From Oligoflexia bacterium (lineage in GTDB: Bacteria; Bdellovibrionota_G; JANQFH01): 64,000 nucleotides of DNA. A program made the translations under genes and the position numbers. Below the pieces are notes generated by a model, which was not told the DNA's origin, did not search any database, and saw only the letters and a program-made list of their open reading frames with translations. Positions 4,085 through 63,780 of the stretch are shown piece after piece. The stretch's first letter is position 1; each line of letters opens with the position of its first letter. Location: NCBI GenBank assembly GCA_028277945.1, contig JANQFH010000024.1, positions 102,917 through 166,916 of the forward strand, given 5' to 3'.

Positions 4085-4101
4085 ATGGACGGAGTGTCTA
4101 T

Positions 4102-4109
4102 GCTATAAT
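4102..4109 (+). promoter_or_regulatory. Candidate extended -10 element (TGcTATAAT) for the 4134 gene
   Basis: A perfect TATAAT at 4104-4109 is preceded by TGc and lies 25 nt upstream of ATG 4134. No good -35 is present. Motif-only call. Confidence 0.3.
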
Positions 4110-4133
4110 GGTTTGAGGGGAGTCCCACCAAAC

Positions 4134-9596: not shown

Positions 9597-9785
9597 AGAT
9601 TTCGATGCATCTGTGTAAGGTTTTCATGGCAAGCCTGGGGAGCCATGCGTGCAAGCAGACTTCAGTCAATTTAATGTAATTATTTTAAATAGTTGTGACG
9701 AAGTAGCCTGCATGACAGTATGGCATCTCTCTTGCTAGTAATATCGGTGGACATGGGAGTCTCGCCGAGAAAAGAGGAATCACGG

Positions 9786-14627: not shown

Positions 14628-15731
14628 ATGTCCTCTGTCCCGGACTATAAGGTCAAAATACCACCTGAGATCGTCAAGTTTCTTGATAAGGCTGCACCCA
14701 AAGATGCCAAGCTTCTTGCTGCTCGGGGTTTGGTACCCATGGCGCCGGATGTACTGATTACGGCGCTGTTTTTGCTATCTGGCGATAGCGATGCTGAGGT
14801 TCGCGATACAGCAAAAAAGAGCCTCTTGGGACAGCCAGAAACCGCCTTAATCAATCTACTCAAGCAACCCTGCCATGCCAAGGTCCTCGACTTTTACGCA
14901 AAAACAAAAATGGATAACAGCACTATTATCGAGGCCATTCTTCTCAACCGCTATACCCCTGATGAAACCTTTGTCTATTTGGCACCGCAGGTTGGTGAGC
15001 AGCTGCTTACAATTATCGCCAACAACCAAGAACGGCTACTACGTTGCCCTAAGATTGGTGAGAGCCTGCGCAAAAATCCACAAGCATCCCAGTCTGTGAT
15101 TGATCGTATGGTCTCCTTTTTGCGTTTGAATGGCATCATTCTCGAAGGCGTTAGCGAAGAGCTTACCAGAGAAGAGATCCAACAGATTATGGCCGAGGAT
15201 GACCAGCTACTGATCGCGGCGATCTATAACGAAGATGAAGACGATAGCCTAGAAAACCTCTCTATCTCCCTGCTTCAGGAGGAAGATGATGAAGATCTGA
15301 CCAAAGAGGGAGTAAGTCTCGATGATCGGCAGATCTTGAAGAAACTTTCAGAGCTCACAGTTGCAGAAAAGATCAAGCTGGCGATCAAGGGAAACAGAGA
15401 GGTGCGTACGGTACTGATCAAGGATCCCAACAAGCTCATCTGTACGGCTGTCATCAAGAGTCCAAAGATCAAGGACAATGAAGTGATCAGCATTGCCCAG
15501 ATGCGCAGCGTTCATGACGAGATACTACGCTTGATCGCCAGAAATCCCGAGTGGACGAAAAATTACCAAATCAAGAGCTCACTAGTTAACAATCCCAAGT
15601 GTCCCATTCCTGTGGCGGTACAGTTTATCAAGCACCTGCGCGTCAACGACCTTGGTATGCTGTCTAAGAATCGCAATGTCTCACAGCAGGTGCGCCGCTT
15701 TGCCAGGCAGCTCTACAATCAGAAGCGCTAG
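14628..15731 (+). CDS. Hypothetical protein with HEAT/ARM-like repeats and an acidic central segment
   Basis: 367 aa, 43 nt downstream of the EF-G paralog. It has a HEAT-like LSGDSDAEVRDTAKKSLLG motif and an acidic DEDDSLENLSISLLQEEDDEDL stretch. No family recognised. Confidence 0.55.
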   Translation: MSSVPDYKVKIPPEIVKFLDKAAPKDAKLLAARGLVPMAPDVLITALFLLSGDSDAEVRDTAKKSLLGQPETALINLLKQPCHAKVLDFYAKTKMDNSTIIEAILLNRYTPDETFVYLAPQVGEQLLTIIANNQERLLRCPKIGESLRKNPQASQSVIDRMVSFLRLNGIILEGVSEELTREEIQQIMAEDDQLLIAAIYNEDEDDSLENLSISLLQEEDDEDLTKEGVSLDDRQILKKLSELTVAEKIKLAIKGNREVRTVLIKDPNKLICTAVIKSPKIKDNEVISIAQMRSVHDEILRLIARNPEWTKNYQIKSSLVNNPKCPIPVAVQFIKHLRVNDLGMLSKNRNVSQQVRRFARQLYNQKR

Positions 15732-25291: not shown

Positions 25292-26485
25292 TTAAGAAAG
25301 AATGTCTTTGGGCTCGGCTGCAAAAAACTCCTCTAGTGGTATCCCGCCACTGCCGATGATGAGGCTTTTAGTTTTTGAGAATTTTTCTTTCAATCGATAC
25401 AGACCCGAAGCTTTCAACGGACGTCCACTCTTTACTTCGATTGCCCAGAGCTTGTCTGCTGTTCTTACCACAAAATCGACTTCGTTTGATCGTTCTCTCC
25501 AGTAAGTGACGCTATAAGGTAGTCCCTGAAGACAGTTGAGCAAATGCCCCCCAACGGCGTTTTCGACAATCCTTCCCCACCAACTTCCATCGTTTCTAGC
25601 TTCCTTGAAATTCTTTTGCGACAAAGCATGAATAAGACCATTGTTCCAAAGAATGAGCTTCGGACTTGATCCTCTCTTTTTAGCTTGATCTCTTGGGAAT
25701 CGTTCCAGGCCGCTGACGAGAAAAGCCGTTTCTAGGAGTCTGAGGTAGTGAGCAAGCGTAGTAGTATTGCCGACATCTTGCAACTGTCCTAGCATTTTAT
25801 TGTATGAAAGAATTTGTGCTGGGTAAGCAGCTGCTAGCGCGAACAGATGACGGAGAAGAGTAGGCTTTGTAATATGCTGCATTTGTAACACGTCTCTTGT
25901 GATGGCTGTTTCTATCAATGAATCCGTGATGTAGGATCGCCAAAAACCTTCATCTTTGTAGTACAGGGCTGCCTTGGGATAACCTCCGAAGAAGAGCCAG
26001 GATTCAAGATCCCATGCGAACTTTGCCTTACACTCCGTCCAACTCCAGTGAGCAAATCGAAAAAGCGTAAACCTTCCAGCTAAACTCTCTGATAGGCCGT
26101 GTTGTAAAAGAATGGACGAAGAGCCCAGCAAGAGGACGGCAATTCTACGTCCTTGTTTCTGATCCTCATCCCATAGACGCTTAACTATTTCACTCCAACT
26201 TTGAACTTTTTGTACTTCGTCAAGGATCAATAGGGTTCTTAGCTTATTGCATTCTGATAAACGTCTAGCCACATGCCATTGGTTTTCAATCCATTCGATA
26301 CCGAAAGGTTGCATGCCATCTGCGGCTGCATAGTGAACGGATCCCTTCCATCTCTTTTCAATTTGCGTGGCAGCTGTGGTCTTGCCAACTTGGCGAGGCC
26401 CCATGACCACGTGGATGAGGTCCTTGGCCGTTTGCAAACTCTGCCAGAGCTTTACTGTGGTTGGGCGTAGATAGTCTTTTGCCAT
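25292..26485 (-). CDS. AAA+ ATPase of the AAA_14 / DUF4143 family
   Basis: Walker A VMGPRQVGKTT and Walker B LILDEVQ. The C-terminal half is typical of DUF4143 (restriction-endonuclease-like, WEVDFVV-type motif seen as NEVDFVV...WAIEVK). The gene is visibly AT-rich. Confidence 0.8.
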   Translation of the reverse strand: MAKDYLRPTTVKLWQSLQTAKDLIHVVMGPRQVGKTTAATQIEKRWKGSVHYAAADGMQPFGIEWIENQWHVARRLSECNKLRTLLILDEVQKVQSWSEIVKRLWDEDQKQGRRIAVLLLGSSSILLQHGLSESLAGRFTLFRFAHWSWTECKAKFAWDLESWLFFGGYPKAALYYKDEGFWRSYITDSLIETAITRDVLQMQHITKPTLLRHLFALAAAYPAQILSYNKMLGQLQDVGNTTTLAHYLRLLETAFLVSGLERFPRDQAKKRGSSPKLILWNNGLIHALSQKNFKEARNDGSWWGRIVENAVGGHLLNCLQGLPYSVTYWRERSNEVDFVVRTADKLWAIEVKSGRPLKASGLYRLKEKFSKTKSLIIGSGGIPLEEFFAAEPKDILS

Positions 26486-33878: not shown

Positions 33879-34454
33879 TTGCTCATGCAAGATGGGTTCT
33901 TAACCGACCGTCGAAAAGAGCTTGAAGAGAGCTTCTTTCATCGACTCGAGGTCAAGCAGCTTGAAAAAATGCAGCAGGAGCAGCAAAAGGCTGACAGACG
34001 CCAAGCCCTGAAAAACGCCTCTGGCATTGCTGACCCCGCCCTTCTCGACAAGCTGCTTGAATTAGAGATTTCGCCGCAGACCCTAGCAGCGCTCACGCTC
34101 ACGCCGTTGATAGAGGTGGCCTGGGCAGATGGTAAGATGGAGGATAAAGAGCGCACGGCGATTCTTGCCGCCGCAGAAGACCAGGGTGTGCAAAAGCAAA
34201 GCGCTGCCAGCGAGCTCCTGCAGGCGTGGCTCAACCACCGTCCTGGGCCAGAACTTATGCAAACCTGGCAAGACTACATTCAGCAGCTTGGAAAACAGAT
34301 GTCGGCAGAAGAGTTTACCGGTCTGAAACTTGCGGTACTCCACCGCGCCCGAGCCGTTGCTGAAGCCGCCGGCGGCTTCCTCGGCCTTGGCAACAAGGTC
34401 TCCAAAGAGGAAGAGCAGGTATTGCAAAAGCTGGAGAAGGCTTTTACAAACTAG
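33879..34454 (+). CDS. TerB-like (tellurite-resistance TerB / DjlA N-domain fold) protein
   Basis: EVAWADGKMEDKERTAILAAAE is a typical TerB-type helix pair. The start is probably ATG 33885. Confidence 0.45.
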   Translation: MLMQDGFLTDRRKELEESFFHRLEVKQLEKMQQEQQKADRRQALKNASGIADPALLDKLLELEISPQTLAALTLTPLIEVAWADGKMEDKERTAILAAAEDQGVQKQSAASELLQAWLNHRPGPELMQTWQDYIQQLGKQMSAEEFTGLKLAVLHRARAVAEAAGGFLGLGNKVSKEEEQVLQKLEKAFTN

Positions 34455-34906
34455 CTGGATTTGTCACTGTGCATTTGATTAATCTCTCGTTTTATAGCGG
34501 TAACAAATTGCTTGGCTGCTTCGAGATAGCCCTTTAATTCCTGCGTGCCCATTTCAAAAATTCCTAAATACTCAAATCGATTTCGCCGTTTTCTGAGGCG
34601 ATTAAACTTTAGAAGCAACTGCTTGTATTCCTTTCCCAGCATCCTTTCTACGGCAATCAGAACGCCCTGATGTTGGCGGACGGGTCCTGGGCGATAGCCA
34701 TGAAGCCTTAGCAGAGCATTAGCCGTATGAAAGAACGCCTTATATACAAAGTCCATCGCTCCAGCCTCGTCAAAGGAGATTAACTTACTTGCTGAATCAA
34801 GGTCCTTTTCGGCTCGGATCATCAGCAATTCAACCTGCTCTTTCCCTATTCCAGGCTCGTGTTTTAATTGGCCCTTTTCCAGCAAATCTTTAAAGTCCGT
34901 TTTCAT
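34451..34906 (-). CDS. HEPN-domain protein (toxin-like partner of the upstream nucleotidyltransferase)
   Basis: 151-aa helical protein lying 2 nt downstream of the MNT gene. HEPN-like LKFNRLRKRRNRFEY sits where the Rx4-6H motif is expected, with Tyr in the His position. Confidence 0.65.
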   Translation of the reverse strand: MKTDFKDLLEKGQLKHEPGIGKEQVELLMIRAEKDLDSASKLISFDEAGAMDFVYKAFFHTANALLRLHGYRPGPVRQHQGVLIAVERMLGKEYKQLLLKFNRLRKRRNRFEYLGIFEMGTQELKGYLEAAKQFVTAIKREINQMHSDKSS

Positions 34907-34908
34907 AG

Positions 34909-35502
34909 TTACGTTTTCAGTTCAATGCGCTTTTGCTTTAATACATTCATAACAAAGCTGTCTTTCTGTCTTTGCTTCCCCCCCCATTCTTCTTCGGTGT
35001 GATAGATGTAGGATATCTCTCGACTGAACTGCTTTTCTAAGGTCTGAAGTTTTTCTGTAAACTTCGAATCGTCAAATTTTTCATTATCTACAATAAGACA
35101 CAGGTCAATGTCCGAATAGGCTTTCTCCTCGCCCTTGGCAAAGGATCCATAAATAAAGCCGCGCTTGACAGCTGTAAACTCCTTTAAAAGATCTTGCAAG
35201 GCTCCCTTTATACCAATCGTCTTGAAAATAAGAGACTTTAGATCTTGGTATAAGGGATGGTCTTTATTAATGGAAAAAAATTTCTGCACTCCTCGCTTTT
35301 CCGATTTAAAGAGGTTGTCTTTTTCAAGCGCTTGCAGCTCTTTAGACAGGTTGCCGGCGCTGACTTCCAACCTACGCGCTATATCTCGCAAGTGCAGCCA
35401 AGCATCAGGATTCGTGAAAAAATAGGCAAGGAGCTTATTTCGTAGAGTCGCTTTATCTGTTCGTAGCAGTATCGGTGGCATTGTTATATAAATATATAAC
35501 AT
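34909..35502 (-). CDS. Minimal nucleotidyltransferase (MNT) with N-terminal winged-helix domain
   Basis: NTase motif YGSFAKGEEKAYSDIDL. An ArsR-like wHTH precedes it (LHLRDIARRLEVSAGNLSKELQALEKDNL). The real start may be ATG 35481 (MPPILL). Confidence 0.75.
   Translation of the reverse strand: MLYIYITMPPILLRTDKATLRNKLLAYFFTNPDAWLHLRDIARRLEVSAGNLSKELQALEKDNLFKSEKRGVQKFFSINKDHPLYQDLKSLIFKTIGIKGALQDLLKEFTAVKRGFIYGSFAKGEEKAYSDIDLCLIVDNEKFDDSKFTEKLQTLEKQFSREISYIYHTEEEWGGKQRQKDSFVMNVLKQKRIELKT
35482..35501. promoter_or_regulatory. 20-bp palindrome TGTTATATA-AA-TATATAACA at the MNT gene start (candidate operator)
   Basis: Perfect 9-nt arms at 35482-35490 and 35493-35501. A third half-site, ATGTTATAT, follows at 35503-35511. 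The MNT protein carries a wHTH. Confidence 0.45.
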
Positions 35503-50795: not shown

Positions 50796-51779
50796 ATGAA
50801 ACACAACGATAAGATCTCTCCCAGCGCCTCAGAAACGGCCAGGGACATTAAGGTCTTTAGCGGCAACGCCAACAAAGAGCTGACCAAGCATATCTGTGAC
50901 TTTCTCAACATTGTTCCTGGCGAAGCTGAAGTGAGCCGCTTTAGTGATGGTGAGACCCGGGTAGAAATTAACGAGAACGTCCGCGGTCACGATATCTTTA
51001 TCGTCCAATCCACTTGCGATCCCGTCAACGACCATCTCATGGAGCTGTTGGTGATGATCGACGCCTTAAAACGCGCCTCTGCCCATCGCATCACTGCGGT
51101 GATACCCTACTACGGTTATGCCCGTCAGGACCGCAAGGTAGCTCCGCGTGCACCTATTACCGCCAAGCTGGTGGCTGACCTGTTGGCTGCTGCTGGCACC
51201 GATCGCGTTCTCAGTATGGATTTGCACGCCGGCCAGATTCAGGGCTTTTTTGATATTCCCTTTGACCACCTCTATGCCGCTCCGGTTTTGCTCGACTATT
51301 TAAAAAAGCTCCGCGGAGACCGCGAGGTCGTGGTGGTGGCGCCAGATGCAGGCGGTACAGAGCGCGCTCGTTACTACGGTAAGCGTCTCGATGCGAGTCT
51401 CGCGGTTATTGATAAACGGCGTGAACGCGCCAATGTCTCGGCAGTGATGCACATCATTGGTGATGTCAAAGATCGGGTTGCTATTCTTGTCGATGACATC
51501 ATCGATACCGCCGGTTCTATCACCCAGGCTGTACCCGCACTGCTCGATGCCGGCGCCATGGAGGTTTATGCCGTAGCCACCCACGCCGTGCTCTCAGGTC
51601 CTGCCTTGGAACGGATTGCCGCCTCGAAGATGTTAAAGTTGGCAGTAACAGACACCATCCCGCTGAGCGAGGAGTGCCGTAAGGTCGACAAGGTTGAGGT
51701 CTTCTCCGTGGCCCAGCTCTTGGGCGAGGCCATCAAGCGCATCCACAACGCTGACTCGGTCAGCTCGCTGTTTATTTAA
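50796..51779 (+). CDS. prs: Ribose-phosphate pyrophosphokinase
   Basis: [16 protein letters not shown], the PRPP loop [10 protein letters not shown], and a typical SVSSLF C-terminus. Confidence 0.95.
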
Positions 51780-51788
51780 AGACCCCTT
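51737..51788 (+). repeat. Direct repeat DR1a: last 43 nt of prs (stop codon included) plus 9 nt
   Basis: It matches 52518..52569 at 50 of 52 positions. Both differences are silent in the Prs frame (GCT/GCC and TAA/TGA). Confidence 0.9.
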
Positions 51789-51836: not shown

Positions 51837-52115
51837 CTAGGCCACCAGTTTTTTCCTAAGCTTTTCAAGCTCATGCTCTAGACGATCTAGTCGAGATTCC
51901 TGCTGCTTTCTGTGGTGGAGCGTGTCGCGTAGGAGCCTATTTAATAGTGTCTGATAAGGGATTCCAGTGTTGTCGGACATCTTTTTTACTTCTGCCAACA
52001 AATCAGCATCAAAGTTTATGGTAATTTTCACCTTGTGCACTTTTGCCATCTGCTGACGTATTTGACGCGTTCCTTTTTTATCAATCTTTAGCTCACTCAA
52101 CTTTGGTTGCTTCAT
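51837..52115 (-). CDS. brnA: BrnA-type antitoxin
   Basis: The ATG at 52115 gives MKQPKLSELK. VKITINFDADLLAEVKKMSDNTGIPYQTLLNRLLRD is typical of the BrnA antitoxin family. The tracked ORF starts at TTG 52154. The gene overlaps the brnT stop. Confidence 0.75.
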   Translation of the reverse strand: MKQPKLSELKIDKKGTRQIRQQMAKVHKVKITINFDADLLAEVKKMSDNTGIPYQTLLNRLLRDTLHHRKQQESRLDRLEHELEKLRKKLVA

Positions 52116-52383
52116 GGTACAGTCTCCTAAAGTTACGCCATTCGGCTGATCCAATAATACGGATCTTATTTCCTCGCCTTGTGAAACGAGTTGTGAGAAT
52201 GCGATTTGATCTTGATTTGCCTACCCAGTAAAACCGCTTCTCATTCTGAGAATGCTGTTTATCCACCATCTGCACACCTTTAGGATCAAAAAAGGTTTCA
52301 ACTGCTTCGGCAAAACGGATGCCATGTTTTTGTATATTAAGACGCTCCTTGTCGATATCCCATTCAAATTCCACCTCAATCAC
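52093..52383 (-). CDS. brnT: BrnT-type toxin (DUF497 ribonuclease family)
   Basis: FEWDIDKERLNIQKHGIRFAEAVETFFDP is the BrnT/DUF497 N-terminal signature. GTG start. A TGgTAATAT extended -10-like box lies upstream on the minus strand. Confidence 0.8.
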   Translation of the reverse strand: MIEVEFEWDIDKERLNIQKHGIRFAEAVETFFDPKGVQMVDKQHSQNEKRFYWVGKSRSNRILTTRFTRRGNKIRIIGSAEWRNFRRLYHEATKVE

Positions 52384-52517: not shown

Positions 52518-52569
52518 GCGCATCCACAACGCCGACTCGGTCAGCTCGCTGTTTATTTGAAGACCCCTT
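52518..52569 (+). repeat. Direct repeat DR1b: orphan copy of the prs 3' end
   Basis: See DR1a. Homology to prs starts abruptly at GCGCATCC, and no prs-like sequence lies upstream of it. Confidence 0.9.
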
Positions 52570-52741
52570 CCTTCTCACGGGAGCCTGAGTCGCAAATAGG
52601 AAAAATTTTACGCAGTTTTATTTATGCCTCATCTGAATAAGTGTTTGAAAATTAACAGCTTTTCTCCTGGCACTTTTCTTGCTTTAAAACTTGCTATAGA
52701 AATGGAGAATGAATCATTCAGGCATTCATAGGAGTATGAAA

Positions 52742-53161
52742 ATGAAACGAATATCACTCATGTTTATCCTGGGAGCCGTGTTGGTACCCGTTTCGGGCTA
52801 CTCTGAACTCAGCATGGTTGAATGTGTCGCCCTTAAACAGATTATTGAAGAGTATGCGGTGACAAAGCCATTAAAAGAGATGTCCGGGAATGGTTCAGGG
52901 AATATTGGCCTGTCCGACAAAGCGACCCCAGAAGAGATTGCGGAGGCAGAACGACAGGCAGAGAAGATACAAGCAGCGTATGAAAAAAGAAAGCTTGAGG
53001 TAGAAGCTGACAATAAAGAAGCCCAAGCATTCAATGAGGAGATGAAAAGAAAACGGCAAGCAGTTGAAAAAGTGTATTCCGACAACGCGTGTGAAGAACA
53101 CTTCGAAGATCTTCTTAGTACGTTGGGTGTAAAGCTAGGTGACGAGCAAGAAGGCGACTAG
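52742..53161 (+). CDS. Small secreted Lys/Glu-rich coiled-coil protein
   Basis: The ATG at 52742 lies 7 nt after AGGAG. Signal peptide MKRISLMFILGAVLVPVSGYS, then a charged helical region (EEIAEAERQAEKIQAAYEKRKLEVEADNKEAQAFNEEMKRKRQAVEK). No family recognised. Confidence 0.5.
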   Translation: MKRISLMFILGAVLVPVSGYSELSMVECVALKQIIEEYAVTKPLKEMSGNGSGNIGLSDKATPEEIAEAERQAEKIQAAYEKRKLEVEADNKEAQAFNEEMKRKRQAVEKVYSDNACEEHFEDLLSTLGVKLGDEQEGD

Positions 53162-53194: not shown

Positions 53195-54496
53195 CTAAGA
53201 GCTATCCTCTGTGGATCTTTCTTTCTGCCTTTGAATATAGGTGTGGGTATTGGAGAGGGCTTGAATCATATCCTTATCTGTCTCAGCCAAAAGAGCTGTT
53301 GCTACTTTCTCTAATGCCTCATCTGCACGGTTGATGTTGACCGCCACCAGTGCCTCTGCCTTGGCAGCAAGCGCCAGAGCATAACTATCGTCGATCGTGC
53401 GCCATAACTCTTCCTCGGCACGCTGCTCGTAAAAGGCAAATTTTCTCTCAAGGCTCTTGGCTTTAAGACCTAGTGCAGCTTGACGCCGCACCTCTCCATC
53501 CGCATCATCTAACCGCGCGATAAACAGGATAACTACCTCATCGTTCTTTTTCCAATCGAGGAATCCGAGCGCAGCCGTTGCCCGCTGCCGTGATCGTTGA
53601 TCATCGTTGTCGCCCGTTGCTTGTGCCAGCAATGAAAACGCCAGATCGAGTAAGGCTCTGTTGAATTCTAAATAGTATAATATGGTTTCCATGTCCTTAA
53701 CCATGAACTCCTTATCGGTAGTCAGGTAGTTTTCAACCAAATCCTCAAGCAGCACTGAGTAGGCGTCATCACCTTCTTCGTCGGACATGGGTTTATATTC
53801 CAACAAGTAGCCAAAGGCCACGGGAAGGGCCTCTCGCTGCCAAACCACATCTTCATCATTCCCTTTGAACTGCAGGTAATGGTCTGAGTAGAGTGCCTCG
53901 ACGGTTAGAGGTCTACTATAGAGGTGCTCACGCAGCTCAGACCCCACTAAAAATTTGTTTCTTTCTGCAAAACCTAACTCTGCCAACCAGACCCAAGTTC
54001 GATCTCCATGGCCAAGTTTAGCCAGTGTATGCAACGCCTGCGCTATAGCGTCCCTTAAGGTGAAATTTTTCTCTTCTTTTGCTTGGCGCGCATCTTCTTC
54101 TATCGCTACATCCAACAACTCATCGAAAGCAGCACCATACTCCATGGCAACTAAGGTCTCGACTGCCTGCTGTCGCAATTGTGCCGCCTGCCATGAGGAT
54201 TCCTCACCTTCTTCGGCACTCTTAACGATTTCTAGAACCGCCTCTCCCGCCTTTTCAGCAGCCTCTTTGCCTCTGTCAGCTAACATACAGAGAGCAGTGC
54301 TGCGCGTTTCGTAGCTCCATTCACTACTCAGTCGCTCTACCAAGGTGTCGATGTCGTCTATCAAGCCTGCAGGGTTGGCAATGCCTTGCGGGCAATGTGC
54401 CCGTGCGACTGCCTGGTTCGTTAACGTTGAGCTCATGACAAAGATACAGGCCAAAACAGTCGAGAGTCCGATCTTACTTTGGCTAGGTAAAGACAT
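53195..54496 (-). CDS. Secreted HEAT-repeat protein
   Basis: The ATG at 54496 lies 6 nt after GGAGG. Signal peptide MSLPSQSKIGLSTVLACIFVMSSTLTNQAVARA. It has HEAT-like units (TRSTALCMLADRGKEA; LDDADGEVRRQAALGLKAKS). It is divergent from the 2411-aa gene. Confidence 0.6.
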   Translation of the reverse strand: MSLPSQSKIGLSTVLACIFVMSSTLTNQAVARAHCPQGIANPAGLIDDIDTLVERLSSEWSYETRSTALCMLADRGKEAAEKAGEAVLEIVKSAEEGEESSWQAAQLRQQAVETLVAMEYGAAFDELLDVAIEEDARQAKEEKNFTLRDAIAQALHTLAKLGHGDRTWVWLAELGFAERNKFLVGSELREHLYSRPLTVEALYSDHYLQFKGNDEDVVWQREALPVAFGYLLEYKPMSDEEGDDAYSVLLEDLVENYLTTDKEFMVKDMETILYYLEFNRALLDLAFSLLAQATGDNDDQRSRQRATAALGFLDWKKNDEVVILFIARLDDADGEVRRQAALGLKAKSLERKFAFYEQRAEEELWRTIDDSYALALAAKAEALVAVNINRADEALEKVATALLAETDKDMIQALSNTHTYIQRQKERSTEDSS

Positions 54497-54745
54497 GACG
54501 ACCTCCAGCGGCAAGTAAGCCCTGATTAAAAATTCCTTGAGATTTCCCTAACCTAGATATCGCATCGTGTCAACAAGACATTTCTTTGTAACATCTCTCT
54601 TACCACGGGCTTGCCACGGGCGGCTGGGTCGCAAATAGGGAGAAGACTAAGAGAACAGCTCCTGCTGGCCCAAGGTAGATGGTCACCGGCCAGCCCTAAC
54701 TTATTTTTTCTTTTTTTCCAACAACTTAGTCTTTCCCATCCCCTC

Positions 54746-54795: not shown

Positions 54796-57700
54796 ATGGC
54801 CGAGTTTCAGCGTAAGATTTTCACATCTTCAGTATTTTTCAGGTCTTTTGGTTTGCTGTGTTGGTTTGTATTGCTCTTTGCCAGCCCAGCTTTAGCCCAT
54901 TCTTCAGCAGCTGAGCTGTATGCCAACTACCGTTCTATATACGGCAGCTATAGTTGGTGGTTAGAGCGTTGGCTGGATTGGCATGAGCAGCGGCGTAGGT
55001 ACTTTGCCGAGATTGAGAGTCCTCAAGGAGACTTCACCGCCTTTGCCGAGACCTCAGCGTTTGCCGATTTATCAGATTTAGAGCAGCGGTTCTATTATGA
55101 GAACTCGCTTAGGCAGTTCACGGTTTTAAAGGCCGATGATCTAGTCATTGTAGCTCAAGCAGAGCCCAATGCCCTGGTACGTGCACAGTTATTAGAGGCT
55201 GCCTTAGGCAACTACCTGCTCGTGCAAGACCGTTGGCGTATTGAGGCCACAGACAGAGCGTTACTTACGACCTATGCTGAAGCTGGGGATGTTTTTTGGC
55301 AGCATTACTATGAAGCGCGGCGGATGATGCTGGGTTTGGATGCCACTGCTACTTGGCAGCAGATGCTCGTTGCTTTTGATCGTTTGGCCACAGAGACCCT
55401 CGGCCTATCTGAGTACGAACGCATCTACCAGGGCTCTCAGCACTTTTTAGCTTACATAGAAGAGGAGGAGCCTCGTTCCATAGCCCGCAATCTTGCCAAG
55501 AACGGTTTGGCCCTGACCCTGTTGGAATCGAGCGATGTCAACAGTACCTGGAAGAACTCCGCTTATGAGACCTCAAAGTTAATCAAGCAACTCGGTTTGC
55601 TCTCTGTGTTGCTGGAGTGGGTCCATAACCAAGAAGCTAGTACGCTTGAGGAGGCGCTGCCTCTCCTGACAAAGCATGCTCCTAAGAGCGGCGTCCTACC
55701 CAAGCAAGAGGGTGAGCCTGGGGTGCACTATGTGGATGTGACCCAGAAGGTCTATTTGGGGTTGGGTCAAGAGAACGATCGTTGGATCCTACGTGGGGGT
55801 GAGATCTATTTACTCCCAAGCATCCAAGATAAGCAGATCACCATTGAGGTCACTGAGATTGGTGGGATGGTGGGCATGGTTCGTGACACTCCTACTGTCC
55901 AGGTAGATGACACCCAGAGAGGTACGGGACGTCTGTGGGCTTTAGATGAGGCTAAGCTGTATGCCAAGGTAAAGCTGCGCTCATCCATGCATTTTGCAGG
56001 GGATCAAGTAGGTACGATAACCGTTCAGCATGGCAGGATCATCGCCTCGGAGTATGAAGAGAACAAAGATCTCCATGGCAAGCTCTACCTAGCCTTGCAG
56101 CCGAGCAAACTACGGCGTCAATGGATCAGCTCACTATACCGGGATCTTCCCAAGCAATGGCAACAACAGGGACGTACAGATGTCGCCCTATTAGATGATC
56201 TTCTAGCACTCGAGCGTCTCTCTAAGCACAACTGGCGTTCTCGGCATGATCGTTATCTTGCCATGGCCAAGCGTTACCGCAGAGAGCACAGCCACAACAC
56301 CGCGACCCACATTGCAGAGGATAACCTGTTGTTGACCCTACACTCCCGTGAAGCTGAGGAGATGGCCGCACAGATCAATGGTTTTTTTGGCGATCGTCAT
56401 AGGGATCAACTAGCCGCTTTTACGATCTACGATCTGCCCATTTTAGTCCCCGCCTTAGCATTGATGGTTCCAAGTGGGGGTGCCAGCCTTGGTGGCGTAG
56501 CCGCGGCCACGGGGCGTAGTGTAATGTGGCGCACTCTGTTTGCTCAAGGAGCCAAGCGTTGGTTGATCCGAGGTCTTATTGGTAGCTCTATCCTCACTCC
56601 CTTACACGCGGGTTGGAAGCATCTAACTGGCCGTCCAGCCTTGGATCACATCTGGTTAGACTTTGCCGTCAATGCCACCTTTATTGCTTCGTTTGGCGGT
56701 ATTCGTGTGCTGCATCAGCTGGGAGACCGGTTGATGTTGAAGGCGCTGCCTTTTTTAAGAAAGCCAGGGGGTTATCTCGTACCACGGATGACCTTCCGCG
56801 GCACCATGGAAGCGGCTCCAGCCTTAAGCCATACAGGTACGGCGTTGAGTCAAACGGCTTTGGTTTTAGAGATGGGTATGGCTCTCACCGCAGCCTCTGG
56901 GGGTTGGAGTAATCTGCTTAGTCTCGGTGCCCAAGGTCCCAAAAGCCTGAGTGATTGGCGCGATCTGTATTTTCGTACGACGTTGATGGTGGGTATGCTG
57001 CATACCTCCTTAGTGGCTATGCGACCTGGTCTTTTACGCCAACCCATCATCGGTCAACAGATCGCTGGCCAACGCTTTGGCTTGCAACAGATCGGTCAGC
57101 AGCTGCAACCCTCGACTCGTCCAGGTTCTTCCCAGCCTGCAAACTATGCCAGACAGGCTGAAGCAGTTGCTCTGGAGATCATGGAGAGCTGGCGCCAAGG
57201 AGGCTCTGGACCTCGGCAGCCTAGCTCAAGTTGGGGAGAGGCTGGCAACTACAACAATTTTGTAGAAAGCCTGCCTGGATCCTCAACAACAGGACCGAGA
57301 GCGGCTACACCCGTAAACAGTAGACAAGTGGCGACAAGAACAACAACACCCACCTCAAGTAGAACCCAGAGCCCACAGAATAACCGGCAAACTACTCCTG
57401 AAAATACCCCCACAACAACCATGCCAGATATGCCAGCTGTGGTACCCATTACCGTACTACCCGCTATGCCAGAGATGTTCCCTGCTGAACCGGATGCAAC
57501 AACGACAATGCCTGATGAAGCTCAATCAAAAGCAGTCTTGCACAAGGCAAATTTTCAGGCTAGCAATGCCCCTCCATCCCTTCCTCCCGGCAATGACCTT
57601 TTAGATTGGTTTGCCTACGTAAAACTCTGTGCTGAATCTAGCGAATTTTGTGGTCGTTTTTCGTTTAAAGACTTTCAAACACAACGTAATGAACTGTTGA

Positions 57701-60700
57701 CAGCGTGGGGGCATCTTCTTGGGGACGAAACATTTGATCCTAAGCGCGAATTTCAGACCCTGTTAAGGCAACTCATAGTCGCACTTGAGACTGCAACAGG
57801 GTTGGAAAGATTCAAATCCTTCCGCGCTAATGAATTTGAATCGGTGGGAAGAGAAATTGAAGCACTAGGTGGGAAGATGGCCTACTATACGCTAAACATG
57901 GTGGGTGGAAGGCGTGTCATGCTAAGGCTCATTCCAGAGAGTCTCATGGATGCGGACAGGCAAGGGATCAACGTTGGCATTGTAGAGACTCAGTTTCTGG
58001 CTCAATATGATTTGGCACCAGAGATTTTAGGGGTCGTCCCAGCAGATGAACTTAAAGAACTACTGAAACTGCCAGGAATTAGTGACAACCCTCACGACCC
58101 GTTTGTTCTTGGTGTGGTGTTTGAAGATTTCAGTGATGCCTATTGGCCAGGACACGAGGAAATGCCTACAGGTGAAGAGCGCTCGTGGGACCCAATGGCT
58201 GTACGTCACCGTATGTTGGCTTTGGAATACTTTCTAGATCAATTGCATATAAACTATTCAAGCCAAATTGAGCTTCTCATCATGCCCGATGGACGAGTAT
58301 GGGTGTTCCCAAGTGACCTGCCACACTTTGCTGGGGTTGATGCAGACGTAAGGAATAATTTTGTTAGTCATCTCTGGAATCGAGTAGAGTGGGCTGACAT
58401 AGACCCTGACCGGTTTGGAGATTCTGTAGTATCGCTGCGACCCTTTCTTGAAGCCATGGGCCTACAGCCACCAAGTGGAAGGTCTCTTTCTGCGGAAGAC
58501 ATCGACGCTGAGCTCCGTGGTGAGGGCGGTATCAATGACCCGGATGAGACGGAACGACGCCTCATTGAGGGATGGCAAAGAATGATTGAACATGATGATT
58601 CTAATGGCGGTCCAAGAGGACCGCAGGCACTCTTGGACGATGGGACCTCTGGGGAGAGTTTTGGGCCACCCCTGCCTTTGGACTACGGCCCACCCCTCGA
58701 TCCAGAACTTACAGAGATGCCGTTGCTGCCGCATATTGTTCTTCCGAAGACCTCACCTTATATCGGTGATTCCCCTGGTTCCGCCACTTCCTTTGTGGCA
58801 TCCGAACAGGACAATCCATTGAGAGAGGATCGTGAAGAACAGTTTCGACATGCAGACCAAAAGCTACGATTGATTTTTGGTAATGCTGCCAATTGGGCAT
58901 TTCATAATAGTCCACCTAGCCTTGAGCACTATTTCCAAACGGAGCATGGATCACCAGAGCAAACTACACAAGAACGACAACTATTGGTGTTGCGCGCAAT
59001 GCTTGATGGCGTCTTTTTTGCTGGATTAAATAGATTGCTCGAACTCCAAAAGCTCTTTTTGTTTTCGGATGAAACGTTGCAACAGTTTAGAAGGTTCAAA
59101 GAACGTGTTCTTGCTAACCCTCCATCCAAGGGTAGAGACATAGCTGCTATTCTAGGTGAAATAGAAAAGGAGGCTAGTGATCTTATTGGCAGTCGGATCG
59201 ATGACGTTATGATTAGTGTTTTTCGCGATCCAGAGTTGGCTCCTCAGAGTGTACGGGATGCCCTTGCCCAGGCAGGTGTTGACTACCAGGACACTGTGCG
59301 TTGGAGTCCGGAAGTGCTTGCCCCAGATAAGTTTCAACAGCTGTTGTTTGAAGTTATGAAGGTTCTTGGGTGGGACGGCACTATTGAAGTCGGTATTACG
59401 TTTGGGCTTCCCGATCCTAGACATCCAGATCGACTATATCAGCTTCACGCTACAATACCTGAATGGGCTGGTTATATGGCACTGGTTCATGAGATAGGCC
59501 ACTGGTACCAAAGCTTTAGTCTTTTGCGGGCTGGGAGGCCAAGGCCTACTACACCTACCGTCACTATAGAAGGTGCCGATCTTTTCGAAACGCTTAGAGA
59601 ACTTGAAGTTTATCTTGAGATGCTAAGACCTACTGACCCAGAACATAGGACAACGGAGGAATTGCTTGACAGAGTTCACCATCTATCTCAACTTTTCGAT
59701 TATTATCTTCCACTGCTTCGCACCCTAGCTGCAAGGTCTGATCTAGTGACCGAGGTTGAAACTGCGTTACGTGTTGGAGAAGGTGAACACAGTGAAAATC
59801 CAGATTACGAAAGGTTTGTTGCATTCTGGCTTTCATTGGTTGATCCTGAATTTATACAGGAGGTTGTTGAAACACTTGATCGTCTTGAGGAACGTGCGGA
59901 AATTGTTCTCGAATTTTATTCGAGTTTAGACCTCTCCGTACGTCTTCAAAGTAGACCATCGTTGATTTTAGAAGAAGAAACCATGTCTGAGAGCGGAGGC
60001 GAAACTGTTGCGTCCTCGCCTCCTAGTCGCGGGTCTTCTCGAAGTACCTCTGTGGCGCCTGCCCGCCCTACTAGCATTGCCCAAAACGAACCTTGTCCTT
60101 GTGGCAGCGGTAAAAAATTCAAGAAATGTCATGGCGCGCCGGGTGGACCGAACGCACTCTTGGACGATGGGATCTCTGGGGAGAGTTTTGGGCCGCCCCT
60201 GCCTTTGGACTACGGCCCACCAGTCGATCTAGAACTTACAGAGATGCCGTTGCTGCCGCATTGGCATGCGGGGCAAGGCGCTGCAGGGTTTCCACTGGGG
60301 GACAGTGATGCAGATCCGCCATTCCTAACTCCTCGTTGGATCGAACAGACCACCCCGCCATGGGTGGTGGGTGACGAAGCTGATGTCGATGCTGCTGACG
60401 GTGACAACACAGACGAAACAGCAGCGCAACCACTCCTGACGCCGCTCGCTCCATCTCTATTGCCAAATGACGGGCTGTCCAATTTGCAGCTGCAAGCTTC
60501 TTCTGAGGAAAGAGATGCGGAAGACCAATCGACACCCGATGAACCCGAGGAAGCAACAACTCCAGCAGCAGAAGAAGCTCAACCAAGTGACGCTGGGCAC
60601 GAAGATGTCGTTGTAGATTTGTTAGGAGAGGAAGCCGCTACAATTTGGCATGCGCACTGGCCGTTAGAAGCTGACGCCACTGATTTAGCAGAGCAATTGT

Positions 60701-62031
60701 ACAGAGCCCTGGTTGCTGAAGCAGACATCCTAGGTAGAATGTTCGATGCGAAACTCAAAGCGGTTGGCTCTAATAGAGAGGAGGCGATTAGATGGGCGGA
60801 TCGAGATGCCGAGGGTGGAGAAGCAGAGGAAGACATCCCTGAAGATGTTTATCAGAGATACAAAAGAGCTGAAGCATTAGCGAGGGCAGATGCCGATTTT
60901 CAGCGGCAGATGCAAACCATTGAATTACTGAAGACCCTTTTAAAAGGAGCCGTAGATCGCTTAGCCAGTTGGGGCATCCATACATTGATCCATCGTCTTG
61001 GTCTTAGACCAGAACTATCCTTGGGAGAAGCGATGGGTGGTATGCCGACATGGGATGCTAACGAAGTATTTGCAGAAGCTGTGGGTAGTCTCCTACTTAG
61101 TCGAGGCATTGATTTTTTTGGTCCGGAATCCCCAATTACTGATGTGATGCTTGTTCAAGAGAGACTAAGGTGGGATTTAGCCTTGATAGCATTTACAGCA
61201 GGAGTTGATCCGGCAGTACTGACGACAGATTCTCATTATGAACTAGTACAGGACGACCTAAATGCTTTGCTACAGACGCTCGCAGTAGTTTGTCGTCGGA
61301 TTGAGGTGTTAGAGGTACAACGCGCCCTGGGACTTCGCACCATTAGCAAAGCAATAGCAGCTCTCGAAGCATTGCAAGGGGAAACAGGGCAGCGTGAATT
61401 TGAAGTTGAGGGTTTAACGGCTAACGAGAGGGATTTTTTTAATCTTGTTATATTGAATGCGCTTCCCGACGAGTTTGATGTTGCTAGTGCGATATCCGTA
61501 TTAGCAGACCTTCGTGCAGAGCAAAATCGAGCCGTTGATACAAAACAAGCGCTAGACAGATCTTTAAAGCCGTTATTGGATCTGCTTGAGCGATTTGATC
61601 AATTTCTGGGTGAACAGAGTGATGTAGAGCACAGCCTTGCGGATGCTTTTAGAGGTCAAGATGTGTCTGAACATCGGTTGAGAGAAAGAGTACAAATTTT
61701 CTTTGGTGGAAATAGAGAACTATCCGAAGCCGTCTACAAAGCTTTCCTTGGTGAACAGCATCTTGAGGGAGAAGCCAAAGTCGAATTTTGGCGTCGAGTT
61801 GCGGAGATTGCCGCTACAGCGTCTAATTTACTTTGGTCTATTGTGCACCGCCATCGAGCTCTGCCAACAGTAGAAACAATGGGCGATGGCATGGCACTAC
61901 GCTTTCAACCGGCTAGCCCTGAACTTGACCCAGCAGCAAGAGCAGAACAAATTGAGCGAGCCCTTGCTCGCGTGGCTGTAGAGTTCCGGTCCCGTCTTGA
62001 AGCGAGAGAGCGTGAACAAGGTGGTGAATAA
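54796..62031 (+). CDS. Giant multi-module protein (2411 aa): signal peptide, ~500-aa exported region, ~5 TM helices, S/T/P linker, three large modules separated by a duplicated 36-aa motif; HEIGH and SEC-C motifs
   Basis: The reading frame is uninterrupted for 7.2 kb, with AGGA 8 nt before the ATG. The N-terminus FVLLFASPALA|HS looks like a signal peptide. Hydrophobic helices lie around aa 540-745. HEIGH is at aa 1565-1569 and CPCGSGKKFKKCHG at aa 1767-1780. Confidence 0.8.
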   Translation: MAEFQRKIFTSSVFFRSFGLLCWFVLLFASPALAHSSAAELYANYRSIYGSYSWWLERWLDWHEQRRRYFAEIESPQGDFTAFAETSAFADLSDLEQRFYYENSLRQFTVLKADDLVIVAQAEPNALVRAQLLEAALGNYLLVQDRWRIEATDRALLTTYAEAGDVFWQHYYEARRMMLGLDATATWQQMLVAFDRLATETLGLSEYERIYQGSQHFLAYIEEEEPRSIARNLAKNGLALTLLESSDVNSTWKNSAYETSKLIKQLGLLSVLLEWVHNQEASTLEEALPLLTKHAPKSGVLPKQEGEPGVHYVDVTQKVYLGLGQENDRWILRGGEIYLLPSIQDKQITIEVTEIGGMVGMVRDTPTVQVDDTQRGTGRLWALDEAKLYAKVKLRSSMHFAGDQVGTITVQHGRIIASEYEENKDLHGKLYLALQPSKLRRQWISSLYRDLPKQWQQQGRTDVALLDDLLALERLSKHNWRSRHDRYLAMAKRYRREHSHNTATHIAEDNLLLTLHSREAEEMAAQINGFFGDRHRDQLAAFTIYDLPILVPALALMVPSGGASLGGVAAATGRSVMWRTLFAQGAKRWLIRGLIGSSILTPLHAGWKHLTGRPALDHIWLDFAVNATFIASFGGIRVLHQLGDRLMLKALPFLRKPGGYLVPRMTFRGTMEAAPALSHTGTALSQTALVLEMGMALTAASGGWSNLLSLGAQGPKSLSDWRDLYFRTTLMVGMLHTSLVAMRPGLLRQPIIGQQIAGQRFGLQQIGQQLQPSTRPGSSQPANYARQAEAVALEIMESWRQGGSGPRQPSSSWGEAGNYNNFVESLPGSSTTGPRAATPVNSRQVATRTTTPTSSRTQSPQNNRQTTPENTPTTTMPDMPAVVPITVLPAMPEMFPAEPDATTTMPDEAQSKAVLHKANFQASNAPPSLPPGNDLLDWFAYVKLCAESSEFCGRFSFKDFQTQRNELLTAWGHLLGDETFDPKREFQTLLRQLIVALETATGLERFKSFRANEFESVGREIEALGGKMAYYTLNMVGGRRVMLRLIPESLMDADRQGINVGIVETQFLAQYDLAPEILGVVPADELKELLKLPGISDNPHDPFVLGVVFEDFSDAYWPGHEEMPTGEERSWDPMAVRHRMLALEYFLDQLHINYSSQIELLIMPDGRVWVFPSDLPHFAGVDADVRNNFVSHLWNRVEWADIDPDRFGDSVVSLRPFLEAMGLQPPSGRSLSAEDIDAELRGEGGINDPDETERRLIEGWQRMIEHDDSNGGPRGPQALLDDGTSGESFGPPLPLDYGPPLDPELTEMPLLPHIVLPKTSPYIGDSPGSATSFVASEQDNPLREDREEQFRHADQKLRLIFGNAANWAFHNSPPSLEHYFQTEHGSPEQTTQERQLLVLRAMLDGVFFAGLNRLLELQKLFLFSDETLQQFRRFKERVLANPPSKGRDIAAILGEIEKEASDLIGSRIDDVMISVFRDPELAPQSVRDALAQAGVDYQDTVRWSPEVLAPDKFQQLLFEVMKVLGWDGTIEVGITFGLPDPRHPDRLYQLHATIPEWAGYMALVHEIGHWYQSFSLLRAGRPRPTTPTVTIEGADLFETLRELEVYLEMLRPTDPEHRTTEELLDRVHHLSQLFDYYLPLLRTLAARSDLVTEVETALRVGEGEHSENPDYERFVAFWLSLVDPEFIQEVVETLDRLEERAEIVLEFYSSLDLSVRLQSRPSLILEEETMSESGGETVASSPPSRGSSRSTSVAPARPTSIAQNEPCPCGSGKKFKKCHGAPGGPNALLDDGISGESFGPPLPLDYGPPVDLELTEMPLLPHWHAGQGAAGFPLGDSDADPPFLTPRWIEQTTPPWVVGDEADVDAADGDNTDETAAQPLLTPLAPSLLPNDGLSNLQLQASSEERDAEDQSTPDEPEEATTPAAEEAQPSDAGHEDVVVDLLGEEAATIWHAHWPLEADATDLAEQLYRALVAEADILGRMFDAKLKAVGSNREEAIRWADRDAEGGEAEEDIPEDVYQRYKRAEALARADADFQRQMQTIELLKTLLKGAVDRLASWGIHTLIHRLGLRPELSLGEAMGGMPTWDANEVFAEAVGSLLLSRGIDFFGPESPITDVMLVQERLRWDLALIAFTAGVDPAVLTTDSHYELVQDDLNALLQTLAVVCRRIEVLEVQRALGLRTISKAIAALEALQGETGQREFEVEGLTANERDFFNLVILNALPDEFDVASAISVLADLRAEQNRAVDTKQALDRSLKPLLDLLERFDQFLGEQSDVEHSLADAFRGQDVSEHRLRERVQIFFGGNRELSEAVYKAFLGEQHLEGEAKVEFWRRVAEIAATASNLLWSIVHRHRALPTVETMGDGMALRFQPASPELDPAARAEQIERALARVAVEFRSRLEAREREQGGE
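58627..58734 (+). repeat. Intragenic repeat R1 (36 codons: ALLDDGTSGESFGPPLPLDYGPPLDPELTEMPLLPH)
   Basis: It matches 60154..60261 at 103 of 108 nt by hand alignment, in the same reading frame. Confidence 0.9.
60154..60261 (+). repeat. Intragenic repeat R2 (ALLDDGISGESFGPPLPLDYGPPVDLELTEMPLLPH)
   Basis: See R1. It starts 6 codons after the SEC-C motif. Confidence 0.9.
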
Positions 62032-63120: not shown

Positions 63121-63780
63121 ATGAGTCTCAGTTTAGTAGTAGGCTTGGGCAATCCGGGCGGCGAGTACGCTGCAACAAGACACAACCTCGGCTTTCTTAT
63201 TGTCGACGCTTACCTGGCAAAGTGTGGTTTGAACTCACACAAGCACGGACTTTGGAAGCAGCTCCTGAGCAAAAAGCTGTGGCAGAAAAAATTTTCAGCA
63301 AAGTTTCTCGATCTTGAAAGGGTCGCTCCAGAAGTCCTAAAAAAAATAGGAATTCGCTATTGGTTAAAGCCCACAACCTTTATGAACCGCAGCGGCCAAT
63401 CTGTCGGTCCCTGCTTGCACACCCTGCAGTTAAAACCAGAGCAGATGTTGGTGGTGCACGACGATCTGGACATACCCCTGGGAAAAGTTAAGGTTAAGAG
63501 CTCCGGCGGTCATGGTGGCCATAACGGCATACGCTCCATCATCGACGCTGTGGCTGGCGACGGCTTCTGGCGTTTGCGTATTGGTATTGGTAAGCCAGCG
63601 GCAGATTTTGGTGGTGATGGTGCCGATTGGGTATTGCAGCCCAAAGATAGCGAAGAGCTGCAACCCTGTATTGCCGCGGGAACGCAAGCGCTCACAACAA
63701 TCGTGCAACACGGTTTAGAAAAGGCTATGCAGATCATACATACCAATACAGATAAGGAGAGAGATGATGTTGACGGATAA
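63121..63780 (+). CDS. pth: Peptidyl-tRNA hydrolase
   Basis: [30 protein letters not shown] and GGHGGHNG. It carries a ~25-aa Lys-rich insertion relative to E. coli Pth as I remember it. Confidence 0.92.

Follow-up and report, generated by a model that had tools for sequence, protein, structure and literature searches.

What kind of protein is encoded by an open reading frame (ORF) of 2411 codons in the chromosome of a barely sampled bacterium, and does this gene belong to a new biological system? The ORF lies at positions 54796..62031 (+) of a stretch of 64,000 nucleotides, referred to below as the window, from contig JANQFH010000024.1 (positions 102,917 to 166,916) of the Oligoflexia bacterium assembly GCA_028277945.1. 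Its product, which we call the giant protein or simply the giant, had been singled out in an original prediction from the DNA as a signal-peptide-bearing, membrane-anchored and multi-modular protein with no recognisable overall family. Our analysis indicates that about one fifth of it, a probable zinc protease that ends in a zinc knuckle of the SecA type, has relatives, of which just two are known, both of them distant, and that the remainder is orphan sequence. The giant is an unusual protein, not a demonstrated new system.

The ORF is a single uninterrupted frame with an ATG start codon. An AGGA element, a ribosome-binding site by its sequence, is located 9 nt 5' of the ATG and a TTGACA hexamer farther upstream, and these could plausibly serve as the ribosome-binding site and promoter of the gene. 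When codon usage was scored against a reference of 14 housekeeping genes from the window, frame 1 was the top coding frame in all windows of 300 codons along the gene. Since an open frame of 2411 codons is impossible by chance and the coding signal extends throughout, this is one genuine gene and not a chance ORF, as the original prediction of one multi-modular gene had assumed.

We searched the whole protein against Pfam, NCBIfam, PADLOC, PHROGs and PDB sequences, and repeated the Pfam and PDB searches for each module. The sole part recognised by the whole-protein profile and PDB searches was the SEC-C knuckle, and the module-by-module searches of Pfam and PDB recognised nothing beyond it. 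PADLOC ‘E2’ models and two PHROGs, drawn from libraries of defence systems and phages, matched the giant over the SEC-C stretch only. In line with what had been predicted, the Pfam and NCBIfam scans contained no RHS, Hint, LXG, PAAR or similar hallmark domain. An exhaustive HMMER search with aa 909-2108 as query against 1.84 billion representative proteins gave 438 matches, and the counts taken from this search refer to the best 150 of them. Among these, 148 cover the SEC-C stretch only and two are true relatives, P0002 (E 4.1e-23, 30% identity, aa 1340-1780 of the giant) and P0003 (E 3.4e-8, aa 1539-1780). P0002 is N-terminally truncated, and we therefore refer below to its full-length cluster mate P0152 (1109 aa, JGI metagenomes 3300045398/3300045392); P0003 (881 aa) is encoded on a 2.9-Mb contig of ENA ERZ21831104, and both are uncharacterised hypothetical proteins. 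The claim that no family could be recognised thus stands for the protein as a whole and fails for module B and SEC-C, which have these two relatives. No close relative of the giant was found in any collection searched. A scan of genome contigs recovered at least 80 loci, those listed being SEC-C-only, and the giant had no match in two metagenome scans, in one viral scan or in tblastn searches of plasmids and phages. Word-indexed homologue searches with the whole protein, aa 35-830 and the module B alignment likewise found none; these negatives carry little weight because the query's own protein, P0002 and P0003 were missed as well.

P0152 and P0003 resemble the giant over module B and SEC-C only, and the N-halves of the three proteins have no sequence similarity to one another. 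All three nevertheless share the same order of parts. In the two relatives a signal-like N-terminus leads into an exported domain and then into a hydrophobic region rich in Gly and Ala; a low-complexity linker connects this region to module B, after which come a Ser/Thr-rich tail and a C-terminal SEC-C. The composition of the hydrophobic region is alike in the three members despite their unrelated N-halves. Furthermore, the relatives share with the giant the invariant HE-GH--Q and ELEV motifs, YLPLL-like and WL motifs, and the passage from the Ser/Thr-rich tail into SEC-C. They differ from it in that their SEC-C is terminal and in that they lack modules A and C, the repeats R1 and R2 and the acidic linker. 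The three proteins form a small and undescribed family, of which the giant is the most elaborate member, consisting of the family unit of module B and SEC-C plus two orphan modules, A and C.

Module B (aa 1314-1763, 58735..60084, +), the conserved core of this family, is predicted to be helical and zincin-like. The giant contains HExxH once in its 2411 aa, within the ALVHEIGHWYQ stretch already noticed in the original prediction (aa 1562-1572). Here it forms part of HEIGHWYQ (aa 1565-1572, 59488..59511, +), an HExxHxxQ sequence with invariant H, E, G, H and Q that is a putative zinc-binding and catalytic motif. The versions found in the three members are HEIGHWYQ, HELGHVLQ and HEIGHIFQ, each of them followed by the invariant Glu motif ELEV (aa 1602-1605, 59599..59610, +; columns E289, L290, E291 and V292 of alignment A2), which lies 33-35 residues past the second His of HExxH in the three-way alignment. 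H-E-x-G-H-x-x-Q and the subsequent E-L-E-V constitute the densest cluster of invariant columns in that alignment, and HExxH..Q occurs in no other protein recovered. Since both motifs are invariant across proteins only 24-30% identical, their conservation argues for an active site under selection, with a Glu of ELEV (E1602/E1604) as a candidate third zinc ligand.

An AlphaFold2 (AF2) model of module B based on the three sequences was mostly helical and of low confidence (predicted local distance difference test, pLDDT, 49; 34-57 around the motifs). The order of its elements, namely a helix, short strands, the HExxH helix and a helix carrying the Glu of ELEV, may fit a minimal zincin fold, albeit at low confidence. 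Foldseek returned no significant match for this model (best E 0.17), and the PDB profile search with module B was empty. Pfam and NCBIfam scans extended to E <=10 gave no significant peptidase match, the best being Zn_peptidase for P0003 only (E 0.19), at a position that coincides with the HExxH of that protein. The modelling that had been proposed to resolve the modules therefore gave a helical outline for module B with no significant structural match, and for module A a single-sequence AF2 model that was unusable (pLDDT 39). We regard module B as a probable zincin-like peptidase.

The arrangement of these motifs recalls the PVC-metallopeptidase (DUF4157). Zhang et al. 2012 (PMC3482391) give this domain an HExxHxxQ-E signature and describe it as the releasing peptidase, and in some cases the toxin, of polymorphic and PVC toxins; it can occupy the C-terminal toxin position, often with no accompanying immunity gene. 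Module B is similar in that a conserved Glu comes after its HExxHxxQ, on the next helix of the low-confidence model, and in that the peptidase stands beside unrelated variable modules. However, the Pfam DUF4157 model (PF13699) was matched by neither module B, P0152 nor P0003 even at E <=10, and for this reason we do not file module B as a member of that family. Module B is moreover a helical region of ~450 aa, as opposed to a compact domain of ~80 aa; the giant has a predicted Sec signal peptide and a membrane region and no contractile-injection genes nearby, and RHS neighbours occur for P0152 only, as separate genes.

The SEC-C knuckle (aa 1764-1780, 60085..60135, +) is the only part of the giant past a curated family threshold (Pfam PF02810; E 1.4e-8 and a score of 34.9 bits, with the cut-off at 20.4), which bears out the earlier recognition of a SEC-C motif at the end of module B. 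The ligand pattern CxCx8C[HC] is present, as CPCGSGKKFKKCH at aa 1767-1779, a sequence that differs at only two of 13 positions from what we take to be the motif of E. coli SecA. In addition, the knuckle matches the C-terminal peptides of SecA in the PDB (E 1e-5) and, as in SecA, is preceded by a flexible Ser/Thr-rich linker. In SecA this domain forms the cytoplasmic tail and binds SecB and ribosomes, according to bioRxiv 10.1101/613315. Two features set the giant apart from the SecA tail and from the stand-alone carriers of the domain, YecA and YchJ, namely the internal position of its SEC-C and the presence of a predicted signal peptide on the same protein. SEC-C lies <=12 aa from the C-terminus in both relatives and in 113 of the 148 other carriers among the best 150 of the 438 matches, whereas that of the giant is 631 aa from the C-terminus. 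To compare N-termini, we took the 24 carriers of at least 250 aa, which comprise the three family members and 21 proteins from unrelated families. None of the 21 unrelated carriers has a signal-like N-terminus, and the two features are combined only in the giant, P0152 and P0003. By analogy, the occurrence of SEC-C on proteins otherwise lacking signal-like N-termini would favour a cytoplasmic location of the C-terminal block. SEC-C is found on otherwise unrelated proteins (among them P0004, P0005, P0015 and P0051), at times in several internal copies, and its partners there include a Ser/Thr kinase with WD40, a glycosyltransferase with a methyltransferase, TIR with S1, and HEAT; the motif looks like a promiscuous portable module.

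How is the giant positioned relative to the membrane? Its N-terminus resembles a signal peptide (aa 1-34, 54796..54897, +), with R6, K7 and R16, a hydrophobic core of 12 residues (FGLLCWFVLLFA) and A-L-A before H35, as seen by inspection of the sequence. This is the strongest hydrophobic stretch of the whole protein (Kyte-Doolittle hydropathy, KD, 1.77; summed dG 1.7), and its n-, h- and c-regions fit the signal peptide that had been predicted to end at SPALA/HS. The predicted exported or periplasmic N-domain that follows (aa 35-535, 54898..56400, +) is an orphan with host-like codon usage (G+C content at third codon positions, GC3, 0.51-0.61); having been described as an exported region with no known motif, it also left the Pfam, NCBIfam and PDB searches blank. 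Next comes a Gly/Ala-rich, hydrophobic and basic region (aa 536-760, 56401..57075, +; G+A 24%, K+R 9%), which had been read as about five hydrophobic helices and, possibly, as a multi-helix device for translocation or insertion. Neither view is supported, as aa 539-571 alone passes the usual thresholds for a transmembrane (TM) segment (KD 1.88 at aa 540-558); the other segments are marginal (KD <=1.32; Hessa-type dG sums 4.9-5.9). What is left is a single clear TM and, behind it, a stretch that is basic, amphipathic and rich in Gly and Ala. Directly after the TM, aa 572-620 hold seven K/R against one D/E, and the flank before it is neutral. P0003 has clear TM helices (summed dG 0.1 and 2.0). 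Judged from sequence heuristics only, the giant is Sec-targeted and membrane-associated.

Beyond the hydrophobic region the protein becomes a succession of linkers and modules. A Gln-rich and then Ser/Thr/Pro-rich linker (aa 761-908, 57076..57519, +) reaches 43% S+T+P at aa 801-900, in agreement with the Ser/Thr/Pro-rich linker originally placed at ~829-908. Module A (aa 909-1270, 57520..58605, +; GC3 0.42) is an orphan for which we found no Pfam or PDB match, nor any match among the 1.84 billion representatives in the HMMER matches listed. One of us read ‘LHINYSSQIELLIMPDGRVWVFPSDL’ in module A as a sign of a degenerate kinase-like fold, an idea that found no support from any hidden Markov model (HMM), PDB match or structure and was dropped. 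The acidic, Pro-rich linker that had been predicted after R2 is confirmed by composition (aa 1823-1949, 60262..60642, +), with D+E at 26% and K/R nearly absent around aa 1801-2000. Module C, with the stop codon (aa 1950-2411, 60643..62031, +), has the lowest GC3 of the gene (0.33-0.41) and no PDB match; its best Pfam match, DALR_2, is below threshold (E 0.0045; 17.9 bits, with the cut-off at 22). Neither the start of module C nor the acidic linker had a match among the 1.84 billion representatives in the matches listed.

The two repeats, R1 (aa 1278-1313, 58627..58734, +) and R2 (aa 1787-1822, 60154..60261, +), lie where the original prediction had placed them and agree at 33 of 36 residues and 103 of 108 nt (95% at the DNA level). 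Their flanks are unrelated except for about seven weakly similar codons just upstream. When a 44-nt core of the repeat was used as query, the window yielded these two copies and no others, with none expected by chance, and the repeat had no match among the 1.84 billion representatives in the matches listed. R1 and R2 are the only significant pair in a test for paralogy among the modules of the giant, and there are no copies of its modules elsewhere in the window. A stretch of 27% identity that modules A and B share (E 0.01) lacks collinearity and probably reflects chance. R1 ends exactly at the start of the relatives' module B homology in alignment A2 and R2 starts six residues past the relatives' end, and the repeats therefore bracket the conserved unit. 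Since SEC-C is terminal in both relatives and R2 lies just after it, module C appears to have been appended. We also considered whether R1 and R2 represent a conserved leader of module B in this family, and rejected the idea, as alignments to the regions preceding module B in P0152 and P0003 scored within the range of shuffled sequences. Counted on the DNA alignment, two of the five differences between R1 and R2 are synonymous and three non-synonymous, which points to recent duplication or gene conversion rather than to long selection on a peptide motif.

Codon usage provides a second sign of a mosaic. The 43 genes of the window have a GC3 of 0.56 +/- 0.05, with a minimum of 0.44. In the giant GC3 is host-like over aa 1-750 (0.51-0.61) and, after about aa 825, inside the Ser/Thr/Pro-rich linker, remains at 0.30-0.49 through to the stop codon, the step being from ~0.51 for aa 676-825 to ~0.37 for aa 826-975. 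P0152 has a comparable break where its N-part meets module B (0.42-0.53 before aa 540, 0.27-0.35 after), and P0003 has a mild shift only. Given a break in the giant and one at the same architectural position in P0152, the simplest reading is that recombination attached the C-terminal block to a resident N-terminal part, and did so more than once in this family.

Of the ways in which these parts might work together, we tentatively favour one in which the giant is a mosaic, Sec-targeted zincin platform, anchored in the inner membrane with its N-terminus out and its C-terminus in. The N-terminal signal sequence would bring about 500 residues into the periplasm, aa 539-571 would form a single membrane-crossing helix and some 1840 residues would reside in the cytoplasm. 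The functional core would be module B, an HExxHxxQ...E metallopeptidase, followed by the SecA-type SEC-C, and the protein would work in the manner of membrane-tethered, cytoplasm-facing zinc proteases, in which the outside part varies and the peptidase inside is conserved. Modules A, before the core, and C, after the former C-terminus, would have been joined to it via the two near-identical 36-residue segments, and the 3' two-thirds of the gene would have been grafted by recombination onto the resident 5' third. The positive-inside flank after the TM and the TM helices of P0003 are consistent with this topology, and a variable N-half combined with a conserved C-terminal core across the family is a pattern as in receptors. 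BlaR1/MecR1 (M56), FtsH (M41) and HtpX (M48) likewise combine an outside domain, one or more membrane segments and a cytoplasmic HExxH peptidase. The likeness to these proteins lies in a general logic of a variable outside and a conserved inside catalytic part, and is one of kind, not of descent: no M56, M41 or M48 model matched, the order of domains differs, there is no AAA+ domain, and the size of the giant, its extra modules and its SEC-C tail are unprecedented among them.

Several observations weigh against this membrane-anchored platform. Apart from aa 539-571, the hydrophobic region of the giant is marginal, and the corresponding region of P0152 is a 200-residue, Gly/aromatic-rich stretch of low charge that looks more exported than cytoplasmic. 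In bacteria it is uncommon for a cleaved signal peptide to precede only one TM and a very large cytoplasmic domain. We found no HMM or structure match to a peptidase that would support catalysis by module B, and no substrate or partner gene is conserved near the family members. Finally, the GC3 break in the giant and P0152, the RHS neighbours of P0152 and the HExxHxxQ-E signature fit a toxin or conflict cassette better.

These last points bring up a close though somewhat less likely alternative, namely that the giant is an exported, toxin-like multi-effector whose signal peptide carries it over the inner membrane and whose N-domain and hydrophobic region bind and insert into a target or outer membrane and deliver the C-terminal block A-B-C, with module B following the logic of PVC-metallopeptidases and MARTX toxins as a built-in releasing peptidase, a peptidase toxin or both. 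The tips of Rhs and CdiA proteins show a GC3 drop similar to the sharp one at the junction of N-part and C-part, which is seen in the giant and independently in P0152. By sequence heuristics all three members have Sec-type signal peptides, the marginal, Gly-rich hydrophobicity is typical of initially soluble insertion domains, modules A and C are orphans like many toxin domains, and HExxHxxQ...E corresponds to the PVC-metallopeptidase signature as given in PMC3482391 (section 13). P0152 (L082 4961-8290) lies 99 nt 3' of a gene for a genuine RHS-repeat protein of 1222 aa (L082 1194-4862, E 8.5e-38), and is followed by a Relaxase_C-like small ORF and an AAA_14/DUF4143 ATPase (L083 4110-5309); P0003 is surrounded by orphan ORFs, a KAP NTPase and what, judged by sequence, is probably a transposase fragment. 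The relatives' loci look like accessory-type contexts, and with the toxin-antitoxin (TA) cassettes of the window all three loci look accessory-like. On the other hand, the Pfam and NCBIfam scans showed no RHS, PAAR, LXG, Hint, CPD, RTX, two-partner secretion or autotransporter domain, so that the giant lacks the hallmark N-terminal trafficking or repeat domain of polymorphic toxins (Rhs, CdiA, MafB, LXG), and the DUF4157 model remained unmatched. The 64-kb window contains no sheath, tube, baseplate or AAA+ genes of extracellular contractile injection systems (eCIS/PVC), and no type VI or type II secretion genes. The gene directly downstream encodes ribosomal protein L25/Ctc, with pth next, in the place where an immunity gene would be expected. 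A Cys-based, SecA-type zinc knuckle is without precedent among the exported proteins examined, most secreted giant proteins do not have the acidic, Leu/Glu-rich and apparently helical character of these modules, and no close relatives were found that could show swapping of cassettes, for which the GC3 breaks in the giant and P0152 are the only indirect sign. MARTX and large clostridial toxins combine giant size, a hydrophobic delivery region, tandem unrelated modules and a built-in protease. The giant resembles them in its size, its delivery-like hydrophobic region, its tandem modules and the position of a protease between modules, but the Pfam and NCBIfam scans gave no RTX repeats, CPD, glucosyltransferase or CROP, and it has a predicted Sec signal peptide in place of type I secretion or holin-type export, and its protease would be a zincin in place of a cysteine protease.

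The bracketing of module B by near-identical segments also allows for a self-processing polyprotein, with either topology. Under this explanation, which we consider unlikely, R1 and R2 would be module B's own cleavage sites, and the activated peptidase would cut on both sides, freeing itself and module C and leaving module A on the anchor. Built-in peptidases that free adjacent domains are known in MARTX toxins. The exact placement of the repeats at the borders of the family homology, and their near identity between flanks that are unrelated but for a few weakly similar upstream codons, would suit such a role, and PMC3482391 documents built-in peptidases of polymorphic toxins that set adjacent domains free. 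Against it stand the two synonymous and three non-synonymous differences, which suggest recent duplication or gene conversion, and the lack of any counterpart of the repeat in the relatives or among the 1.84 billion representatives in the matches listed. More improbable still is an extended version, in which a zincin triggered by the outside domain would excise itself and free two orphan effectors, with SEC-C directing the peptidase to ribosomes or the Sec machinery. A lineage-specific structural or scaffold protein, with a non-catalytic HExxH and modules that are fast-evolving filler, its strangeness being a matter of poor sampling, is rather unlikely: it would account for the failure to match any peptidase family and for the several other ORFs of the window with no confident family match, and even Prs, ValRS and Pth from the window each stand alone when about 15 billion proteins are clustered at 90% identity, but it leaves aside the invariance of HE-GH--Q and ELEV at 24-30% identity and the conservation of the SEC-C knuckle in all three members. 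The possibility that several genes were joined at R1 and R2, as an assembly chimera or as fused pseudogenes, deserves mention because the source is a metagenome-type assembly, a 108-nt near-repeat sits at two module boundaries, and independent Logan contigs cover only the flanks and not the giant gene. However, R1 and R2 are identical over at most 31 consecutive nt, less than is needed for a collapse with final k-mer sizes in common use, neither junction interrupts the frame, frame 1 is best coding throughout, and two relatives independently have the N-part and module B in one ORF; the short exact run and the continuous frame and coding signal at both junctions make a chimera very improbable.

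Does the neighbourhood of the gene point to a larger system? The window is chromosomal and encodes BamB, an outer-membrane beta-barrel protein, Pal, CpoB/YbgF, PhaR, hemACD, MreC-PBP2-RodA, Der and Era, and has genes of Tol-Pal type, a gene content that indicates a diderm, proteobacterium-like host. A cyanobacterial origin was considered and dismissed, as HIP1 (GCGATCGC) occurs once against 1.06 times expected. The giant gene is located between prs and L25(ctc)-pth, the start of L25/Ctc being 31 nt downstream; these genes are neighbours in many bacteria. The TA cassette noted earlier near the giant proved to be BrnT/BrnA (51837-52383, -), which lies between 52-nt direct repeats that are 96% identical (51737-51788 and 52518-52569). 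The 3' end of prs lies within the first copy, which suggests that the cassette was inserted with duplication of the prs end. A further repeat of 35 nt, 80% identical (52571-52605 and 54610-54644; core CACGGG-G-CTG-GTCGCAAATAGG), brackets two genes (52709-53161, +, and 53195-54514, -) whose signal-bearing products are a coiled-coil protein and a weakly HEAT-like one, respectively. These had been described as exported HEAT and coiled-coil neighbours; signal-like N-termini are indeed present in both, and the HEAT match, a weak one, falls short of the Pfam cut-off. The pair may have entered the gap between prs and the giant gene as a second nested insertion, and it and the TA cassette look like separate events. 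The idea of a novel system uniting the giant with these neighbours was not supported, as they are flanked by repeats and none of them recurs beside P0152 or P0003.

Elsewhere in the window, an apparent HEPN/MNT toxin-antitoxin pair consists of a HEPN protein (151 aa) and a nucleotidyltransferase (197 aa; low GC3, 0.44) at 34451-35502 (-). An AAA_14/DUF4143 ATPase (25292-26485, -) shares the window's lowest GC3 (0.44); the same family also occurs near P0152, and, being common, may do so by coincidence. Orphans are numerous in this organism: further ORFs with no confident family match are found at 9720-12377, 14628-15731 and 4065-4790, and the sole match of one window orphan of 885 aa is a weak one of coiled-coil type (Dynamitin, below cut-off). 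A TMEM260-like protein O-mannosyltransferase fused to TPR repeats is encoded at 18725-20935, and the Ser/Thr-rich linker of the giant (aa 829-908) would, if periplasmic, be a candidate substrate. The EF-G gene (12494-14584) scores 874 bits with NCBIfam NF009381 and 668 bits with the canonical TIGR00484, which suggests a divergent type of EF-G that might be of use in placing the organism. The Prs, ValRS and Pth mentioned above are encoded at 50796-51779, 6247-8967 and 63121-63780, respectively, and apart from one NCBI assembly, where it is represented by a contig of 180,710 nt, the organism was recovered in Logan run SRR20820740 only. Such sparse sampling of the lineage by itself accounts for some of the giant's lack of relatives and inflates its apparent novelty.

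The combination of a signal-like N-terminus with SEC-C, the repeats that bracket the conserved unit and the recurrent compositional break are real oddities. If none of the readings weighed above holds, the giant would be one more lineage-specific giant protein of an unsampled bacterium. If those that treat it as a toxin or a polyprotein are true, modules A and C would constitute effector domains of a new kind, and a giant polyprotein that excises itself would be a bacterial counterpart of viral polyprotein processing, serving signalling or conflict. The gene also illustrates a route by which such proteins may grow, in which a 4.7-kb block of foreign composition is set on a resident anchor and a duplicated junction flanks a conserved unit. 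A predicted signal peptide, a membrane region, a probable zincin-like protease and SEC-C come together in no other SEC-C protein recovered. If its core is active, this would be an undescribed family that couples a Sec signal and a membrane region to a zincin-like protease and a SecA-type knuckle, and it could inform the use of SEC-C outside SecA, whether for docking to ribosomes or SecB or as an aid to the export of giant preproteins.

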